Below, one piece after another: positions 3,790-19,092 of a stretch of 64,000 nucleotides of DNA. Under the pieces are notes generated by a model that was not told the origin of the DNA, did not search any database, and saw only the letters and a list, made by a program, of their open reading frames with translations. How positions within the stretch are numbered: the first letter of the stretch is position 1; every line of letters starts with the position of its first letter. A program made the position numbers and the translations under genes. The stretch spans positions 786-64,785 of the forward strand of contig JACZSJ010000001.1 of NCBI GenBank assembly GCA_022574295.1, given 5' to 3'. The DNA comes from Pseudomonadota bacterium (GTDB taxonomy: Bacteria > Pseudomonadota > Gammaproteobacteria > Eutrophobiales > Eutrophobiaceae).

Positions 3790-3866
<77 letters not shown>

Positions 3867-4088
3867 AATGAAATGAGTTAGGGAATTTGGTAATTCGCCC
3901 TGGCGCGGAGCGCATGTCGGACTCGGTTGTTTAATAACAGGCGAAGGTCGTAGGTTCAAATCCTACCCCCGCTACCAAATGAAATGAGTTAGGAAATATG
4001 GTAATTAGGCCTGGCGCGGAGCGTATATCGGGCTCGGTTATATAATAACTGGCAAAGGATACAGGTTTAAAACCTGTCTCCGTTGCCA
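3867..4088 (+). repeat. Two decayed tandem pseudo-copies (period ~111 bp) of the preceding tRNA-Met gene
   Basis: Copy 2 (about 3903-3976) keeps an intact 3' half (CGAAGGTCGTAGGTTCAAATCCTACCCCCGCTACCA) but has a degenerate D-arm and anticodon arm. Copy 3 (about 4012-4088) is further degraded (T-arm ACAGGTTTAAAACCTGT, 3' end CCGTTGCCA). All three copies share the spacer AAATGAAATGAGTTAGG.AAT.TGGTAATT. Confidence 0.7.
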
Positions 4089-6482: not shown

Positions 6483-9063
6483 GGTTACGGTCAGTCAATT
6501 TGCAAGCGTTGTCGGTATTGCCGTTGAGCGTTTACAGGAACAGATAGAAGAGTCTGGGTTACCCAAAAAATCTCCGGACGAAATGATTACAGATGAAGAA
6601 AAAAATCATCTGTTGAGTTATTTGCGAGGTAAACATGGAAAGGGATCTGCTGAAACAAAAAAGATTACTTTGAGAAGAAAGACAAGTAGTGAAATTAAAG
6701 TGCCACTTAGCGTACAGGGAAGGAATAAAACAAAATCAAAAATAGTTAATGTTGAGTTTAGAAAGAAACGTACCTACGTTAGACGTAGTGCAATTGAGGA
6801 ATTTACGAAACCAGTAGATGAAGAATTGTCTGCGGAATCGACGAAGGTTGCCGAAGATATTGTTGACAGTGCACAGCTTGTTGAAGAAACAAAGTCAGTT
6901 GATTCGACAAGTACTGAAACAGCAAATGAACATCAGGCAGAGGGGACACCTGTCGATGGGTCTGGAGAGCCCGAAATTAAGTTGGCAGCAGATGGAACGG
7001 CAGTTGCAGAAATTGAAGACAACACCTCTGTCGAAGAGATTGTCAAGGAGCCAGCCGTTGTAGAAACTCCGGTTCAGGAAAAGCCTGATCAGATAACGCC
7101 TGATCAGACAGGGATTGCTCAGGAACAAACCGATAATAAATCTAGAACAGGTAAAAAAGGAAAAGATAAATCAACTCGTTACGGTCGCCAGGAATTGCAC
7201 GTCGCTTCTGAAAAATCAGGACGTCGTAAGAAAAAACCAAGACGTAGGCATAAGGTCATTCCAACGATTGAAACGCAACATGGGTTTGAAAAACCAACAG
7301 AACCCATGATCAGAGAAGTTGATATCCCTGAGAATATTTCAGTGGGCGATCTTGCTCAAAAAATGTCGGTCAAGGCAACTGAAGTCATCAAGATGATGAT
7401 GGGTCTGGGAAGTATGGTCACCATCAATCAAATGCTTGATCAAGCGACAGCTTCTCTTGTTGTGGAAGAGATGGGCCATAAAGCTAAATTACTGAGTGAA
7501 ACTGCGCTGGAAGACGAAATTGTCTATGCAGCGAAAAAGACTGGCGAGCAGGTCTTGCGCGCACCTGTCGTGACGATTATGGGTCACGTTGACCATGGTA
7601 AAACTTCACTGCTTGATTATATTCGCAAGACGAAAGTCGCCGAGAGTGAAGCAGGTGGAATTACCCAACATATCGGTGCTTATGTGGTAGAGACAGACAA
7701 AGGAAAAATAACATTTCTGGACACACCGGGACATGCTGCGTTTACGGCAATGCGCGCGCGTGGTGCCAAGGTTACAGACATCGTCATCGTCGTGGTTGCC
7801 GCTGATGATGGTGTGATGCCACAAACAGAAGAAGCCGTACAACATGCCAAGGCCGCTAATGTGCCCATTATTGTTGCTGTCAATAAAATTGATAAAGCCG
7901 AGGCAGATCCTGAGCGAGTCAAACAGGCATTATCTAAACTGGAGGTTATCCCGGAAGATTGGGGAGGTGATACCCAATTTGTGAATGTTTCTGCACAGAC
8001 TGGTGAGGGGATTAATACTTTACTTGAAAATATTTCCCTGCAGGCCGAGTTGCTTGAACTTAAAGCATCAGAAGAAGGTCCAGCCACGGGGACGGTGATT
8101 GAGGCACGTCTGGACAAAGGGCGTGGACCCGTGGCAACGATATTGGTGCAAAGTGGTGCTCTTGAGAAAGGTGATATTGTTCTGAGTGGTAGAGAATATG
8201 GCCGCGTCCGGGCAATGGTTGATAGCAATGGCGATGAAGTTACGTCATCTGTAGGGCCATCTACACCCATTGAGGTACTTGGTTTATCTGGCATACCCAA
8301 TGCCGGGGACGAAATGATCGTTGTCCCTGATGAGAAAAAGGCACGTGAGATCGCTGATCTCAGACAAACCAAGAGCCGTGAATCCAAGTTGGCAAAACAG
8401 CAAGCGGTTAAATTACAGAACGCCATGAACCGGATGAGTGAGGGTGATATCTCGACACTCAATATCATGATCAAGGCCGATGTCCAGGGATCATCTGAAG
8501 CCATCGTAGAGGCGGTCACCAAACTGTCGAACGAGGAAGTCAGGGTTGGTGTGGTTAGCAGTGGAGTTGGTGGTATTACAGAAACTGATATGAATCTGGC
8601 ACTGGCATCAAAAGCAGTCGTCATCGGTTTTAATGTTCGTGCAGATGCATCTGCACGTAAGCTTGCAGATGAAGAAGGCATTGAAATTCGTTATTACAGC
8701 ATTATTTACGATCTAATCGATGATGTGAAAGCAGCCATGAGCGGCATGCTTGCGCCTGAACTGCGTGAACAAATTGTTGGTGTTGCAGAAGTGAAAGACG
8801 TATTCCGGTCACCAAAATTTGGTGACATTGCCGGTTGTATTGTTTCCACAGGTGTTGTTAAAAGGAATAATCCGATTCGCGTCTTGCGGGATAATGTCGT
8901 TATTTACGAAGGGGAACTCGAATCACTCAGACGATTCAAGGATGATGTTAATGAAGTGAAGTCAGGCATAGAATGCGGAATTGGTGTGAAAAATTATGAC
9001 AATATCCAGCCTGGTGATCAAATTGAGGTGTTTGAGCGAATCGAAATTGCACGCACGATTTAA
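6475..9063 (+). CDS. infB: Translation initiation factor IF-2
   Basis: 862 aa with GTPase motifs ([18 protein letters not shown]). Its start overlaps the nusA stop by 8 nt. Confidence 0.95.
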
Positions 9064-11085: not shown

Positions 11086-13185
11086 ATGAAAGCAGTCAGG
11101 AAAGAATTCCAGTTCGGTGATCACACAGTCGTATTGGAGACGGGGAAAATAGCTCGACAGGCCAGCTCAGTCATTGTCAGCATGGGAGACACCGTTGTCA
11201 TGGTCAACTGTGTCGCAAAGAAAGAGGCTGATCAAGGGCGTGATTTTTTTCCACTGACAGTAGATTATCAGGAACGTACCTATGCTGCTGGTAAAATACC
11301 GGGTGGTTTTTTCAAAAGAGAAGGTCGTCCGAGTGAAAAAGAAACCCTGACATGTCGTTTAATTGACCGTCCACTGAGACCATTATTTCCTAAAGGTTTT
11401 AGAAATGAGGTTCAAATTGTGGCCACAGTGATGTCACTGGATCCACAAATCAATGCGGATATCCCGGCATTGATTGGTGCCTCAGCTGCCGTCGCCTTGA
11501 CAGGGGCACCATTCAATGGCCCAGTAGGCGCTGCGCGGGTGGGTTATATCGATGGTAATTATGTCCTTAATCCCTCGTCGGATCAGTTGCTGGATTCAGC
11601 ACTCAATCTGGTTGTCGCAGGAACCAGTACCTCAGTATTAATGGTTGAGTCTGAGGCCAAACAATTATCAGAAGAGGTCATGCTGGGTGCAGTGATGTTT
11701 GGGCATGAGCAGTTTAAGGTCGCGATAGAAAATATTATAGCTCTGGCAGAAGAAGTTGGTGTCGTCGCCTGGGATTGGCAGCCAGAAGTAAAAGATCAGG
11801 CATTGGCTGATGAAGTGGCCAGTCGTTCAACAGACCTGTTACGTGAAGCCTATGCCATCACAGATAAAGTTAATCGTAAGGATCGCATCAGTGAGATTCG
11901 TAATGAAGTTGTAGAAGTGATGACCGAGGGCGAAGATCCGAAATGGTCAGCATCCGAAATCAATGATGAGATCAGTAATCTTGAAAGCCACATCGTTCGT
12001 AGCAGTATTCTAGCTGGTGAGAAGCGTATTGATGGGCGTGATACAAAAACCATCAGAACTATCAGTACAGAAGTTGGTATTTTGCCAAGAGCGCACGGTT
12101 CAGCATTATTCACACGTGGGGAAACCCAGGCGATTGTTGTCGCTACCCTGGGGACTGAACGTGATTCACAAATCATCGATGCGATAGAAGGTACTTACAA
12201 GGAGCCTTTCATGTTGCACTACAATTTCCCTCCCTACTGCGTCGGTGAAACGGGTCGTGTTGGCACACCAAAACGTCGTGAAATTGGGCATGGTCGTTTA
12301 GCAAAACGTGGCATCCTGGGCGTTATGCCAGATATGGATGAATACCCTTATTCCATTCGGGTAGTTTCAGAAATTACGGAATCAAATGGTTCAAGCTCTA
12401 TGGCCAGTGTCTGTGGGACGAGTCTTGCGTTAATGGATGCAGGTGTTCCGATTGAAGCGCCAGTTGCGGGTATTGCCATGGGACTGATTAAGGAAGATGA
12501 CAAGTTTGTCGTGCTTTCAGATATTCTCGGTGATGAAGATCATCTGGGTGATATGGACTTTAAAGTCGCGGGGACTGAAAAAGGTATCACTGCTTTGCAG
12601 ATGGATATTAAAATCGACGGTATCACCAGGGAAATTATGGAAATAGCATTGGCCCAGGCGAAAGAAGGCCGTATTCATATTCTCGGAGAAATGGCCAAAA
12701 CAATTTCCAGCTCCCGTGAGGAAATGTCTGAATTTGCACCCAGAATTACCGTCATCAAAATCCATCCTGACAAGATCCGTGATGTGATTGGTAAGGGTGG
12801 CACGACCATTCGCGCCATTACGGAGGAAACAGGTGCGACGATCAATATCGATGATGATGGAACGGTAAAGATTGCCGCCGTTGACAGAGCTGCCGGTGAG
12901 GCTGCATTACTCAGAATCGAACAGATAACTGCGGATATCGAAGTCGGTAAAATCTATGAAGGCAAAGTTGCCAAGCTAATGGATTTCGGTGCCTTCGTGA
13001 ATATCCTGCCGGGCAAAGATGGTTTGGTACATATATCGCAAATATGCGAAGAGCGCGTTGAGAATGTCAGTGATAAATTAAGAGAAGGTGAATTTGTCAA
13101 AGTCAAAGTACTTGAAATCGATAGACAAGGCCGCGTCCGCTTAAGTATGAAAGCAGTCAATGAGGCGGAAATACAAGAAGTCTGA
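11086..13185 (+). CDS. pnp: Polyribonucleotide nucleotidyltransferase (PNPase)
   Basis: 699 aa with two RNase PH domains, a KH domain and a C-terminal S1 domain. Confidence 0.95.
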
Positions 13186-13207
13186 TTGTTAAATCAAGTA
13201 TCGACAA

Positions 13208-13240
13208 AAAAAGGGCTATTTGGCCCTTTTTTTGTATCTG
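13208..13240 (+). terminator. Rho-independent terminator after pnp
   Basis: AAAAAGGGC-tatttg-GCCCTTTTTTT hairpin with a T-tract. Confidence 0.7.
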
Positions 13241-13314
13241 CAAATCAGATAGTGGTTTGAATGTTAACCCGTTCTTCGCTTAATACCGTTAGTACCAGAT
13301 AGAACAGATGTTAT

Positions 13315-13389
13315 ATACCCAAACTACTTGGAAATGCTGAATGCTGAATGCTGAACTCTGAATCCTGCACCTCCAAGTAGTTTGGGTAT
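13315..13389. promoter_or_regulatory. Perfect 18-bp inverted repeat enclosing (GCTGAAT)x3, immediately 5' of the ECF sigma gene
   Basis: ATACCCAAACTACTTGGA (13315-13332) is the exact reverse complement of TCCAAGTAGTTTGGGTAT (13372-13389). The 39-nt loop contains GCTGAAT three times. Confidence 0.6.
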
Positions 13390-13402
13390 AGACTTCATTG
13401 CT

Positions 13403-13963
13403 ATGATGGGAGATGCCAGCGATGAAGAATTGATGCTTAGCTACCAGCAGGGTAACGCAACCGCATTTGAGGTTCTGTATGAACGACACAAAGGGGGCGT
13501 ATTTCGTTATTTGCTGGCTAAATGCCATCAGCAAGCGATTGCTGAAGAACTATTTCAGGATGTCTGGATGAAGCTGATTGCCGCACGTGACAGATATGAA
13601 GTACGGGCTAAATTTACCACTTACCTTTATCAACTCGCACACAATCATTTCATTGATTATTACCGAAAGACGCGCATCGATGTATTCCAACAAAAAAATC
13701 CGGAGGAGGATGTTGAGCAAATAACATCAAATGATCAGAAGCAACCAGATGAGCAACTGGAGATACAGCAGCAAATAGAAACGCTCTCGGAGTTAGTTGA
13801 CGGTTTGCCCGATGAACAGCGAGAAGCTTTTATGTTAAGGGAAGAGGCAGGGTTAACGGTGGCCGAAATTGCAGAAGTGACAGGAGTCAATGCAGAAGCG
13901 GCCAAGAGTCGATTGCGATATGCAGTGAAAAAATTACGCGCGGGTTTGAAAAAGAATGGCTAA
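13403..13963 (+). CDS. ECF-family RNA polymerase sigma factor
   Basis: Sigma-70 region 2 (FEVLYERHKGGVFRYLL..ELFQDVWMKL) and region 4 (LPDEQREAFMLREEAGLTVAEIA). Start taken at an ATG downstream of the ORF-track start. Confidence 0.8.
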   Translation: MMGDASDEELMLSYQQGNATAFEVLYERHKGGVFRYLLAKCHQQAIAEELFQDVWMKLIAARDRYEVRAKFTTYLYQLAHNHFIDYYRKTRIDVFQQKNPEEDVEQITSNDQKQPDEQLEIQQQIETLSELVDGLPDEQREAFMLREEAGLTVAEIAEVTGVNAEAAKSRLRYAVKKLRAGLKKNG

Positions 13964-15047
13964 GAAACCGGAAGACAACAAACAAGACGATCAGATATTT
14001 GAAGATTATCTACAGGGTGGTTCCTCTCTGTCCGGGGTTTATCGCGCTGAAGGAAAAGTACGACCACCAGCACATCTCGATAAAGCCATTCTCTCAGCGG
14101 CAAATGAGGCCGTCAAACCAGAACAAATCTCAAAGGTGGCATACAGTCCTTTTGCCAGGAACTGGTATGTGCCGGCATCGATGGCGGCCGTATTGATGTT
14201 ATGTGTTGGTCTGGTATTTACCATCTACAAGGACAGCGGACATATATTATTAACGCCACCGAAAAGTGAATATGATATTGATGCCCAGGTAGCACCGATG
14301 AAATTTGATGAATCAGGAGAAAAAAATAGACAAGATAAATACGTAGAAGAAATCGCTAAGGAAGCTGAAATGCCTGTGCATGTGATATCGGAAGAAAACA
14401 AACCTGCCGCTTCATCAATAGAAGCATTCGATATGGAAGAATCAGATTTTCAGCAGAGGCCTGCGAGCAGGATGCTCCTGCGAGAAAAAGTGACAGAAAT
14501 GGATGATGCCCTGCTGCCAGAAACAGTCGATGAAATGGTTCCAGGAAAAGATGTATCAGATCAGACCATGCGTGACTCCCTTTACAGCCCTGAGAGACTG
14601 GATGATTCAGGCCGCCGGGAAGCAGCGAAAACTAAGAAACAAAAACAATTGGATGTGGGCGATCTGGATAACAAATTAGGTGAAATGGAGTTGAAAACCA
14701 TTGAACAGGGGATAGGGGTAAATTCAGATCAGGAGATGCGTTACAGACAGACAATGGATGATCTGCAAAGACGAAATGAATCATTGAAAGAAGAATCATT
14801 TAAGAAAGAGATTCTTGACGATGATCAGGCCACTGCAGGATTTGCTGAGCAGGAAAAAGCGATAGGTGATGAAATGATGACACCGGAGCAATGGCTGAAA
14901 CAGATTAATAATTTATGGGTATCAGGGGAACACCAGGCCGCCGAAGAAAACCTTAAACAATTTTTTGAAGTCTATCCGGATTACTCAATTGAAAACATAA
15001 AAACCATTCTAGATCCGCAGATAGATCTGATGCAATACATAAGATAG
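13956..15047 (+). CDS. Putative membrane-anchored anti-sigma factor
   Basis: Its start overlaps the sigma gene stop by 8 nt. It has a short cytoplasmic N-terminus, one TM segment (AAVLMLCVGLVFTIY) and a long acidic extracytoplasmic region. Assigned by context only. Confidence 0.45.
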   Translation: MAKKPEDNKQDDQIFEDYLQGGSSLSGVYRAEGKVRPPAHLDKAILSAANEAVKPEQISKVAYSPFARNWYVPASMAAVLMLCVGLVFTIYKDSGHILLTPPKSEYDIDAQVAPMKFDESGEKNRQDKYVEEIAKEAEMPVHVISEENKPAASSIEAFDMEESDFQQRPASRMLLREKVTEMDDALLPETVDEMVPGKDVSDQTMRDSLYSPERLDDSGRREAAKTKKQKQLDVGDLDNKLGEMELKTIEQGIGVNSDQEMRYRQTMDDLQRRNESLKEESFKKEILDDDQATAGFAEQEKAIGDEMMTPEQWLKQINNLWVSGEHQAAEENLKQFFEVYPDYSIENIKTILDPQIDLMQYIR

Positions 15048-16124: not shown

Positions 16125-16646
16125 GTGGCGAGTATGCAGGATGAACCAGGTTTCATTGTTATCGGAAAGCTTGTTGGTGTTTACGGCATTAAAGGCTGGT
16201 TCAAGATTTTGTCATTCACTCGACCAAGAGAAAATATATTTACATACAGTCCCTGGTTAATTAAACAAAACGGGGATTGGCAGGGAATGCAATTGTCGGA
16301 AGGCAAACCTCAAGGTAAGGGGTTGATTGCTTCTATAGCGGAGATTACCGACAGGGATGAGGCGATGGCTCTTGTTGGTTCAGAGATAGCGATTAATCGG
16401 GATCAGCTGGCAGAGCCCAAAGCCGGTGAGTACTACTGGCATGATCTGATTAATCTGCAAGTCATTAACGCACAGAATGAAATACTTGGTGTTGTCACGG
16501 AACTCCTCGAAACTGGTGCAAATGATGTGCTGGTTGTCAAAGCTGACAAGCAGCGGTATTTGATACCCTATGTGAAAGATGTCTATATCAAGGATGTCGA
16601 TCTTGAACAAGGTATCATGCAGGTTGATTGGCAATCTGATTATTGA
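16125..16646 (+). CDS. rimM: Ribosome maturation factor RimM
   Basis: 173 aa with the RimM fold motifs, in its operon position. Confidence 0.85.
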   Translation: MASMQDEPGFIVIGKLVGVYGIKGWFKILSFTRPRENIFTYSPWLIKQNGDWQGMQLSEGKPQGKGLIASIAEITDRDEAMALVGSEIAINRDQLAEPKAGEYYWHDLINLQVINAQNEILGVVTELLETGANDVLVVKADKQRYLIPYVKDVYIKDVDLEQGIMQVDWQSDY

Positions 16647-16698
16647 TGGTCGTTGATGATCGATGATGGGCCAGAATGATAAATCATGGGCTGCTTGA

Positions 16699-17848: not shown

Positions 17849-17874
17849 GCTTTATTTGTATCGTATCTTTGGAA

Positions 17875-17901
17875 AGGCCTGCTCTGCAGGCCTTTTTTTA
17901 T
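17875..17901 (+). terminator. Rho-independent terminator after rplS
   Basis: AGGCCTGCTCTGCAGGCCT hairpin followed by TTTTTTTA. Confidence 0.75.
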
Positions 17902-18062
17902 GTACAGGATGTACGGTCGGAAAAGGCTCCTGCAATTCCGACATTTCCGCCATCCATGGCGGTCGTATGCCGCGGCTGCATGGACGACATACAGGAAGTA
18001 TTAGTGTCGCGAGAGGACAGGAGTCCGTAGCGACTGCAGAGGAGCGGCAATGTAATAGAATA
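17894..18062 (+). repeat. Intergenic repeat element, copy B (between rplS and the convergent aldo-keto reductase gene)
   Basis: Shares the same two modules as copy A. Its central module is a different perfect palindrome, CCGCCATCCATGGCGG. Confidence 0.7.
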
Positions 18063-18099
18063 AAAAAGACAATACTATCTACACGGAGTAAGGGATAGG

Positions 18100-19092
18100 T
18101 TATCTCGTACTACAGTTATGTTCCGTTACTTCTTCGTTACGATCGGTGGCTGGTGGAGGGGTAGGTGAAAGCGCTGAAATCTCTGCCCGTAGTTCTTCCG
18201 TCATGCTGATTTCTACGGATTTAAGCGAGTCTTCAAGCTGTATCAAATTACGTGCTCCGATGATGGGTGCAGTGACTGCAGGGTGGCTACTGACCCAGGC
18301 GACTGCCAGTGACGCTGCGCTGTAACCACGCTCTTTGGCAAAATCTGAAAATCTCTCCGCAACTTGAAAATCTGTTTTCGCTCCGTAGCGAACCTGGTAA
18401 GTTTTGTTCTCCATCAAACGTCCGCTTTCAGGTCGCTTATTAATACCATATTTCCCTGTAAGTAAACCGCCACCCAACGGGCTGTATGGCATAACCGCCA
18501 GACCTTCAGCAGCGGCCATGGGCAAAATTTCAACTTCTGCCTGACGCTTAACAAGATTATACATTGGCTGTATACAGCGAAATTTCGGCAAGTCATTTTT
18601 AGCAGAGATACCCAACGCCTTCATGACTTGCCATGCTGCGAAATTACTTGCGGCTGGATACCTTATTTTACCTTGTTGTACCAATGTATCGAGGGCACCG
18701 AGAGTGTCTGCCAAATCTGCGTATTCATCGAATTTATGAATATAAAATACATCAATATAGTCTGTTTTAAGACGCTTTAGACTTTCTTCGACTGCAGAAA
18801 GTACGTGTTGCCGTGTGGCCCCTCGAGCATTGATATCTTCACTCATTGGATAATAGGCTTTACTGGTAATAATAATTTCATTTCTGCATGAAGAAATCAG
18901 TTTGCCAAGTATTTCTTCAGCTTTGCCTTTCGAATAGACATTGGCGCAATCGAAGAAATTGATCCCGGCATCACGGCAGTGATTGAACATTTGTTTAGAC
19001 ATCTGCTCATCTGCGTCGCCACCAAAGGACATAGTCCCGAAGCATAATTGCGATACGCGTTCGCCTGTGTTGCCGAGTAATTTATATTCCAT
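18100..19092 (-). CDS. Aldo/keto reductase (Tas/YajO-like NADP-dependent oxidoreductase)
   Basis: N-terminal MEYKLLGNTGERVSQLCFGTM and typical AKR length. Start taken at the internal Met. Confidence 0.75.
   Translation of the reverse strand: MEYKLLGNTGERVSQLCFGTMSFGGDADEQMSKQMFNHCRDAGINFFDCANVYSKGKAEEILGKLISSCRNEIIITSKAYYPMSEDINARGATRQHVLSAVEESLKRLKTDYIDVFYIHKFDEYADLADTLGALDTLVQQGKIRYPAASNFAAWQVMKALGISAKNDLPKFRCIQPMYNLVKRQAEVEILPMAAAEGLAVMPYSPLGGGLLTGKYGINKRPESGRLMENKTYQVRYGAKTDFQVAERFSDFAKERGYSAASLAVAWVSSHPAVTAPIIGARNLIQLEDSLKSVEISMTEELRAEISALSPTPPPATDRNEEVTEHNCSTR

Follow-up and report, generated by a model that had tools for sequence, protein, structure and literature searches.

We assign the perfect palindrome in front of an ECF sigma factor gene, with a probability of roughly 0.88, to a non-autonomous MITE with an ERIC-type TIR that inserted at a TA of the sigma-operon leader and duplicated this TA. 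In alignments of the window (the whole 64-kb stretch of DNA analysed here) with its relatives, we observed an insertion polymorphism, TA flanks, identity of the terminal repeat with that of multi-copy elements of Gammaproteobacteria, and a polymorphism of the heptamer tract inside the palindrome. The insertion in this lineage is most likely recent and nearly neutral. The host is an uncultured marine gammaproteobacterium, and its nearest named relative is in Thiotrichaceae, with 80% PNPase identity.

The palindrome and its place in the sigma operon

The element lies in the spacer between pnp (11086–13185) and the ECF sigma gene (13403–13963). The features of the locus are as follows.

13204–13235, plus strand: terminator-like hairpin of pnp (ACAAAAAAAGGGC / GCCCTTTTTTTGT), conserved in orthologues and separate from the element
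13264–13292, plus strand: putative ECF-type promoter of the sigma operon, proposed from conservation
13314–13390, no strand: whole palindromic element with TA flanks, delimited by the empty-site comparison (217 versus 142 nt of intergenic DNA)
13314–13315, no strand: left copy of the TA target-site duplication (empty allele GATGTTA-TA-GACTTC; TA at 125 of 147 family ends)
13389–13390, no strand: right copy of the TA target-site duplication, on the same basis
13316–13340, plus strand: left TIR, with the perfect arm extending to 13332
13333–13367, no strand: heptamer tract in the loop (AATGCTG three times, AACTCTG, AATCCTG), with two or three perfect units
13364–13388, minus strand: right TIR, with the perfect arm starting at 13372
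13393–13427, plus strand: native hairpin with a 10-bp stem (CTTCATTGCT / AGCGATGAAG), beginning 2 nt past the element and also present in empty alleles
13403–13963, plus strand: ECF sigma factor gene, 186 aa, identified by NCBIfam and Pfam profiles
13956–15047, plus strand: overlapping ORF of 363 aa, which adjoins the sigma gene in all relatives

The perfect inverted repeat reported at 13315–13389 in a preliminary description is real, and its arms are 19 bp, one longer than the 18 claimed. Specifically, the left arm, TATACCCAAACTACTTGGA, occupies 13314–13332, and its exact reverse complement occupies 13372–13390, with 19 of 19 positions matching and the 18-mer included; the loop between them (13333–13371) has the 39 nt given before. 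The element measures 77 nt with its TA flanks and 73 nt without them, and adds 75 bp relative to the empty allele. It is small, as MITEs are, and has no ORF or transposase gene of its own inside. The arms are 42% G+C. The hairpin is predicted to fold at −36.4 kcal/mol as RNA (z = −7.5) and at −20.4 kcal/mol as DNA (z = −8.5). A search of 100 shuffles of the window, allowing up to three mismatches, gave no match, so the palindrome does not arise by chance, in agreement with the preliminary description; it is the sole long near-perfect inverted repeat in the 64 kb. The right arm was also correctly placed just before the sigma start, at a distance of 12 nt from the in-frame ATG at 13403 rather than the claimed 14 or so.

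Both ends of the element belong to one family. The 27-mer at 13314–13340, consisting of the left TIR and TA, has two mismatches to the family consensus TATACCCAAACTACTTGGAAATGCAGG, and the reverse complement of 13364–13390, TATACCCAAACTACTTGGAGGTGCAGG, which covers the right TIR and TA, also has two. Subterminal to the right end is GCAGGATTCAGAGTTCAGC, which marks the 'left' end of the 155–266-nt family members.

The loop contains a tandem heptamer, as described before, with a different count in the register that had been given: reading GCTGAAT yields two perfect units and GCTGAAC rather than three units, and the unit that occurs three times is AATGCTG (13333–13353). TRF reports a period of 7, 5.0 copies and 85% matches. 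On the minus strand the loop reads ...GGATTCAGAG TTCAGCA TTCAGCA TTCAGCA TTTCC..., and the tract is an expanded copy of the native TTCAGAG/TTCAGC proto-repeat of the element. A scan of JGI metagenomes for the heptamer-specific junction ACTTGGAAATGCTGAATGCTGAA returned only two unrelated chance matches, giving no sign that the 75-nt variant is multi-copy; the exact species is apparently absent from these metagenomes.

The gene downstream of the element encodes an ECF sigma factor, as had been stated (NCBIfam PRK12513, 212.6 bits versus a cut-off of 206; Pfam Sigma70_r2 and r4_2). The 363-aa ORF that follows has no family match and is presumed to be the anti-sigma partner. Upstream of the element, a −35 block, TTAACCCG (13264–13271), and a −10 block, CGTTAG (13287–13292), are invariant in nine orthologous spacers aligned without elements, and the leader that follows them is conserved; the spacer between the two blocks is constant in length and variable in sequence. 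The motif occurs once in the window. Such an arrangement is what an autoregulated ECF-type promoter would show (AAC ... CGT), and the blocks are taken as a putative promoter of this type, from which transcription would start near 13298–13300. A sigma-70 promoter scan of the pnp–sigma spacer gave no match, and a terminator scan of 13100–13500 found no terminator-like site; the stem is followed by GACUUCAUUGCU, with no U-tract. Since the putative promoter lies upstream, the element would be co-transcribed, and the leader would grow from about 30 nt in the empty allele to about 105 nt. A co-transcribed 5′-UTR hairpin is the likely consequence of the insertion. The start codons of sigma, ATGATG, lie in the loop of the native hairpin at 13393–13427, a structure with an upstream arm conserved across all orthologues; a Shine–Dalgarno sequence is not apparent at the sigma start.

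A dispersed family with ERIC-type ends

The window holds no second copy of the 19-bp arm, even at 5 mismatches of 19. By contrast with the roughly 17 loci expected by chance (own calculation), an exact-match scan of one-genome-per-species contigs (596 Gb) with the 18-mer arm found more than 117. The matches listed concentrate in Gammaproteobacteria, including Vibrio, Methylophaga and Alteromonadaceae. Several genomes carry many loci: at least 21 in the MAG nTSbin2, at least 10 in Alteromonadaceae DT_4, at least 9 in Vibrio cholerae ATCC 14035, and at least 7 each in the Vibrio MAG VLC_062 and a Methylophaga MAG. The 18-mer is also found in V. mimicus, V. metoecus, Psychromonadaceae, Thiomicrorhabdus and Motilimonas, with no match in viral contigs. 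When the window was compared by BLAST with all loci matching the pattern, the flanks had no similarity, so none of these genomes is a close relative of the source.

Among the matches listed, the 18-mer always forms the outermost part of a repeat unit and is followed by (A/G)(A/T)TGCAGG, and the terminal repeat of the family may be written TATACCCAAACTACTTGGA(A/G)(A/T)TGCAGG. Pairing of ends within loci gives size classes of 48, 56–74, 125–128, 149–150 and 263–274 nt. Of 147 family ends, 125 have TA immediately before TACCC, and the only target motif beyond TA at these ends is a weak A/T enrichment. In structure, the window element comes closest to minimal forms that consist of two terminal repeats and a short loop, among them L117 (74 nt, Methylophaga) and L096 (70 nt). 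It is a minimal derivative of this kind: its two terminal repeats of about 25 nt enclose hardly any interior, and its own 7-nt proto-repeat is slightly expanded.

An autonomous partner with matching ends was not found among terminal repeats paired within 4 kb at 117 loci, nor in plasmids and viral contigs. The only kilobase-scale TIR pair (L092, 2,034 nt, 3–4 mismatches per end) is coincidental and encloses a housekeeping-type ORF of 515 aa, which we take to be thiI. We know of no transposase for ERIC. Two further observations concern the distribution and decay of the family. First, a MAG labelled Gemmatimonadota, HYP3_RS_04_7, has the repeat at six loci (L025, L040, L068, L082, L099 and L123); one of them shares its flank with the Gammaproteobacteria MAG Langseth_MAG_00055 (L026 versus L040), which suggests mis-binning or mis-labelling rather than cross-phylum spread. 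Second, L127 has a 58-nt element (7305–7362), where L121, with shared flanks, has a single terminal repeat fused to the flank (376–400), so the family can decay to solo ends.

The 125–128-nt class, found in Vibrio and nTSbin2, aligns over its full length with the E. coli ERIC (RU-1) consensus (PMC2759123, Table 1a). In V. cholerae the 18-mer arm is the end of an ERIC element of about 127 nt; one such copy (L039 1368–1492) has matches in 5,416 of 5,426 E. coli genomes, with 72–74% identity and a median of 6 matching sites per genome. The passages of PMC10969869 that treat ERIC place this MITE in Enterobacteriaceae and Vibrionaceae, and those of PMC3184786 on ERIC-type elements give TIRs, target duplications, and TA at both termini. 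The window element has the ERIC-type terminal repeat and the TA termini: its arm matches the V. cholerae ERIC-type end at 19 of 19 positions and one end of the E. coli consensus at 16 of 19. In addition, both are intergenic, form a long RNA hairpin, and show presence/absence polymorphism. However, the alignment with ERIC is confined to the terminal 25 nt or so on each side, and the core of about 127 nt (GTGAATCCCC...GGGGTGAGCG), which includes the central part targeted by ERIC primers, is wholly missing. Furthermore, both arms of the window element are 'left-type' and pair perfectly, whereas the two ends of ERIC differ. Because it lacks the core, the element shares the terminal repeat with ERIC and is not ERIC in the strict sense.

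The same relation is seen with the Rfam model V_AS5 (RF02818, Vibrio RNA AS5). The V. cholerae ERIC-type copy scores 99.5 bits against a gathering score of 96, whereas the window element, which matches both ends of the model and has just its terminal stems, therefore reaches only 26 bits. The catalogue entry for V_AS5 classes it as an antisense RNA rather than a mobile element; given the above-threshold V. cholerae copy, the model appears to describe a MITE. Matches to mir-2012 and other Rfam microRNAs reflect generic long hairpins and are far below threshold.

Within the family, the window element is also close to a marine MITE of about 266 nt (L114:2590–2855, L033:3219–3482), whose terminal repeats and subterminal GCAGGATTCAGAGTTCAGC are identical to those of the window element and whose 155-nt derivative occupies the same TA in a related species (L129). 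The window copy differs from it in keeping only about 50 nt and adding the heptamer expansion. The 266-nt element had no match in plasmids, and no published description of it was found in the literature searched.

Two other groups of short repeats invite comparison. The Correia elements of Neisseria (CREE/nemis) are likewise small TA-duplicating MITEs, with an unrelated terminal-repeat sequence and host range, and no promoter or IHF site of the Correia kind is evident in the window element. REPs are 20–40 nt long, G+C-rich, imperfect and often clustered, and have neither TA duplications nor long terminal repeats. The window element resembles the RAYT-mobilised REP/BIME sequences in being a short extragenic palindrome of a repeated kind, and is set apart from them by A+T-rich 19-bp arms, TA flanks and a single copy.

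The window has other repeats as well. A tRNA-Met (3790–3866) overlaps a 111-nt tandem duplication (3831–3941 and 3942–4052, 91% identical; whole region 3790–4052), which begins within the 3′ half of the tRNA and places a second, partial tRNA 3′ end downstream; the arrangement resembles the att-site remnant left by an integrative element. Contigs of one species (L001–L009) differ in the spacer that separates rplS from an aldo-keto reductase gene (window 17849–18100), which measures 353 to 491 nt depending on the number of GC-rich palindromic units, TGTACAGGATGTACGGTATGCCGCGGCTGCATGGATGCAGAGGAGCGGCGATGTACA, and on a further inserted unit; several assemblies break into N runs there, and this repeat is a different, REP-like family. 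Finally, the rimM–trmD spacer (window 16647–16698) has a short tandem repeat (TRF 16643–16669), and one strain carries a 13-nt duplication, GATGATGGGCCAG, in this spacer (L008 12358–12422).

Filled and empty alleles at one TA

The pnp–sigma intergenic region is 217 or 210 nt long in the window and 15 further contigs, and 142 nt long in empty relatives, giving 16 occupied alleles versus 8 empty contigs at a flanking-gene divergence of no more than 2%. Ten metagenome contigs that hold the element encode an identical sigma protein. The empty site (L128, L134–137 and L151–153) lies in the context ...CAGATGTTATAGACTTCATTGC... and is found in very close relatives: the sigma protein of L128 is 98% identical, with 1.3% nucleotide divergence over the pnp 3′ end and sigma, and that of L134–137 is 96% identical, with about 1.9% divergence, as also in L151–153. 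Filled and empty alleles differ by exactly 75 bp, namely TACCC...GGGTA (73 nt) and one TA, which fits a TA target duplication. TA flanks TACCC...GGGTA on both sides; since TA is palindromic, sequence alone cannot separate a duplication from the outermost bases of the TIRs. One contig of the species (L147) breaks off some 20 nt before the element starts, at ...CGTTAGTA, as is typical of assemblies near a repeat or polymorphic site.

The promoter blocks and leader are conserved in filled and empty alleles alike. A neighbour-joining tree places two empty lineages nearest to the occupied one, so one recent gain is more parsimonious than two precise losses. The arms are flawless (19/19) in all 16 filled alleles, which is consistent with an insertion of recent date. 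Among near-identical strains, the two allele types alternate freely, which suggests that the effect of the element on expression is small. The preliminary description had proposed comparing orthologous sigma upstream regions; this comparison shows that the hairpin is absent from relatives with 96–98% sigma identity and the same promoter and leader, and that the repeat number varies. Its suggestion of a MITE-like insertion is borne out by the empty sites in the closest relatives and by an arm dispersed over many genomes (more than 117 loci). It had also named dispersed copies and absence from close relatives as arguments against gene-specific regulation, and both were found, the dispersed copies in other genomes.

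More distant relatives carry other family members at exactly the same leader TA, in varying sizes and both orientations:

L129–131, sigma identity 92%: element of 155 nt at the same TA
L138/139, sigma identity 87%: element of 137 nt at the same TA, left end decayed
L140, sigma identity 82%: element of 73 nt at the same TA, with a different interior
L141/142, sigma identity 81%: element of 132 nt at the same TA

This TA is empty in L132 (sigma 90%) and L133 (sigma 84%). At least 5 of about 10 sampled lineages have it filled, with filled and empty states interleaved on the tree. The elements of L129, L138 and L141 are all deletion derivatives of one element of about 266 nt. Specifically, the L129 element arose by internal deletion, and the parts it keeps are about 93% identical to a copy from an unrelated MAG. 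Compared with L129, L141 carries its interior as the reverse complement (alignment score 122 versus 34). The short interior of the window element weakly favours the L141 orientation; at its sigma-proximal end is GCAGGATTCAGAGTTCAGC, which the long elements carry subterminally on their 'left' side. In L132 the site is GATGTTAAAC (1201–1218), with one TA fewer, which brings an upstream ATG (otherwise ATG-TTA-TAG) in frame with sigma; 192-aa calls there start MLNFIAMM.

Occupied sites also leave a trace in protein databases: in at least six lineages, over-called sigma ORFs start with a translation of the terminal repeat, ...PAFPSSLGIDFIAMM..., which makes this motif a convenient marker of occupancy. 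Gene callers run the sigma ORF into or through the MITE in P0010, P0015, P0018, P0021, P0044, P0048, P0050, P0054, P0062–P0064, P0071–P0077 and P0080. In L140 (701–1354) the 73-nt element is fully in frame, with a sigma N-terminus such as MLYTQTTLKPAPVKRVLKRTFPSSLGIDFIAMM.

Four points stand against the assignment to a MITE: the single copy in 64 kb, the missing transposase partner, the lack of a further copy of the heptamer variant in JGI metagenomes, and the filling of one TA in at least five lineages. Insertion at random would seldom give the last of these, so that selection may have played a part. The differing sizes and both orientations imply that the leader TA is either an insertion hot spot, or one of few permissive sites, or the seat of an old, unstable insertion that was trimmed, flipped and excised. 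In its strictest form, the latter traces all alleles back to one ancient insertion, in the ancestor of the whole clade, that later underwent internal deletions in place, inversion between its terminal repeats and precise excisions stimulated by the hairpin, with no recent or recurrent insertion. It would account for the use of one TA in every filled lineage and for the descent of the L129, L138 and L141 elements from the same 266-nt element by deletion. In addition, the palindrome lies between TATA direct repeats, and slippage between them could remove it, with GATGTTATAGAC left behind. However, this history would require that the element was precisely and independently lost two or more times within 2% divergence (L128; the L134/L151 lineages) in place of one gain, the arms of the window element are flawless in all 16 filled contigs, and neutral DNA next to the elements has diverged much more than the elements themselves. 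We favour recurrent insertion, since the elements at the leader TA are much more alike (about 92–93% identical mutually or to copies from unrelated genomes) than the surrounding neutral spacer, which is far more diverged; a single ancient insertion we regard as unlikely.

Selection might instead have acted after insertion, with the MITE retained or repeatedly acquired at the leader because a stable 5′-UTR stem-loop tunes sigma/anti-sigma expression. The filling of the same TA by elements of differing size and orientation would fit such co-option, as would the many database sigma calls with the TIR-encoded N-terminus, the high identity of the site elements beside the diverged neutral spacer, and the lack of an extended target motif that could account for the preference. 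Against it, filled and empty alleles alternate in near-identical strains with promoter, leader and sigma protein unchanged; the retained part differs by lineage, left ends decay (L138), and only the family TIR is kept in common; and permissive TAs are few in a 142-nt spacer already taken up in part by a terminator and a promoter, a scarcity that alone could cause the recurrence. Co-option is thus improbable in our judgement. We are as doubtful of the related proposal that the leader TA is a true hot spot or selected landing site for ERIC-type MITEs, with the leader hairpin independently acquired several times for sigma/anti-sigma tuning; if it held, perfect-armed minimal copies, whose ends recur in Vibrio and enterobacterial ERIC and in the 266-nt marine element, would mark a still-active, horizontally spreading transposition system.

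Slipped-strand change of the heptamer tract had been put forward as a switch of phase or strength. The variation itself exists: 2 of the 16 occupied alleles, L005 and L149 from different samples, have two perfect units rather than three, and the other 14, the window among them, are identical. No switch is evident, however. With only two or three perfect units, the tract sits in the hairpin loop upstream of the ATG, downstream of the inferred promoter, and outside the promoter spacer and the relevant reading frame, which leaves a phase-variation switch unsupported; the predicted structure is also the same for both forms, at −47.7 versus −46.8 kcal/mol for the whole leader. Such a switch is very improbable. 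Least credible of all is a palindrome evolved as a dedicated operator, roadblock or attenuator of the sigma operon: it does sit between promoter and start codon and is very stable, but it is missing from relatives with a 96–98% identical sigma protein and an identical promoter and leader, its arm is dispersed over unrelated loci and taxa, 19-bp half-sites 39 bp apart are not operator geometry, and the want of a U-tract or terminator signature rules against the intrinsic attenuator that had been suggested.

Possible effects and significance of the insertion

With the putative ECF-type promoter upstream, the inserted MITE would be transcribed as a stem-loop of −36 kcal/mol that lies some 15 nt downstream of the mRNA 5′ end and 12 nt short of the AUG. 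A stem-loop in this position may alter mRNA processing or translation, and its perfect 19-bp duplex is a plausible RNase III substrate, as with Correia elements. According to the passages of PMC10969869 on these systems, Correia elements are often co-transcribed, RNase III cuts their TIR hairpins, and the expression of adjacent genes can change; in Yersinia, ERIC copies affect RNase E-dependent mRNA decay. The Correia elements are the best functional analogy for the leader-borne copy, and by this analogy the hairpin could change the processing or translation of the sigma mRNA. The alleles at this TA form a natural series (empty, two-unit and three-unit, together with the 132-, 137- and 155-nt elements of relatives), which could serve to measure the effects of hairpins on the leader.

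The main value of the finding is a correction: a striking perfect palindrome beside a regulator gene is an insertion of selfish DNA, not a regulatory site, and should therefore not be annotated or modelled as an operator. Element hairpins of this type also inflate ORF calls, adding a spurious TIR-encoded N-terminus to many database sigma proteins. The element is a minimal MITE of the ERIC-type family in a new host, of a kind already known, and the repeated occupation of one TA in the sigma leader is its only mildly unusual aspect. For the family, ERIC-type terminal repeats reach beyond Enterobacteriaceae and Vibrionaceae into uncultured marine Gammaproteobacteria, where they cap different interiors and shrink to hairpins of 48–77 nt.
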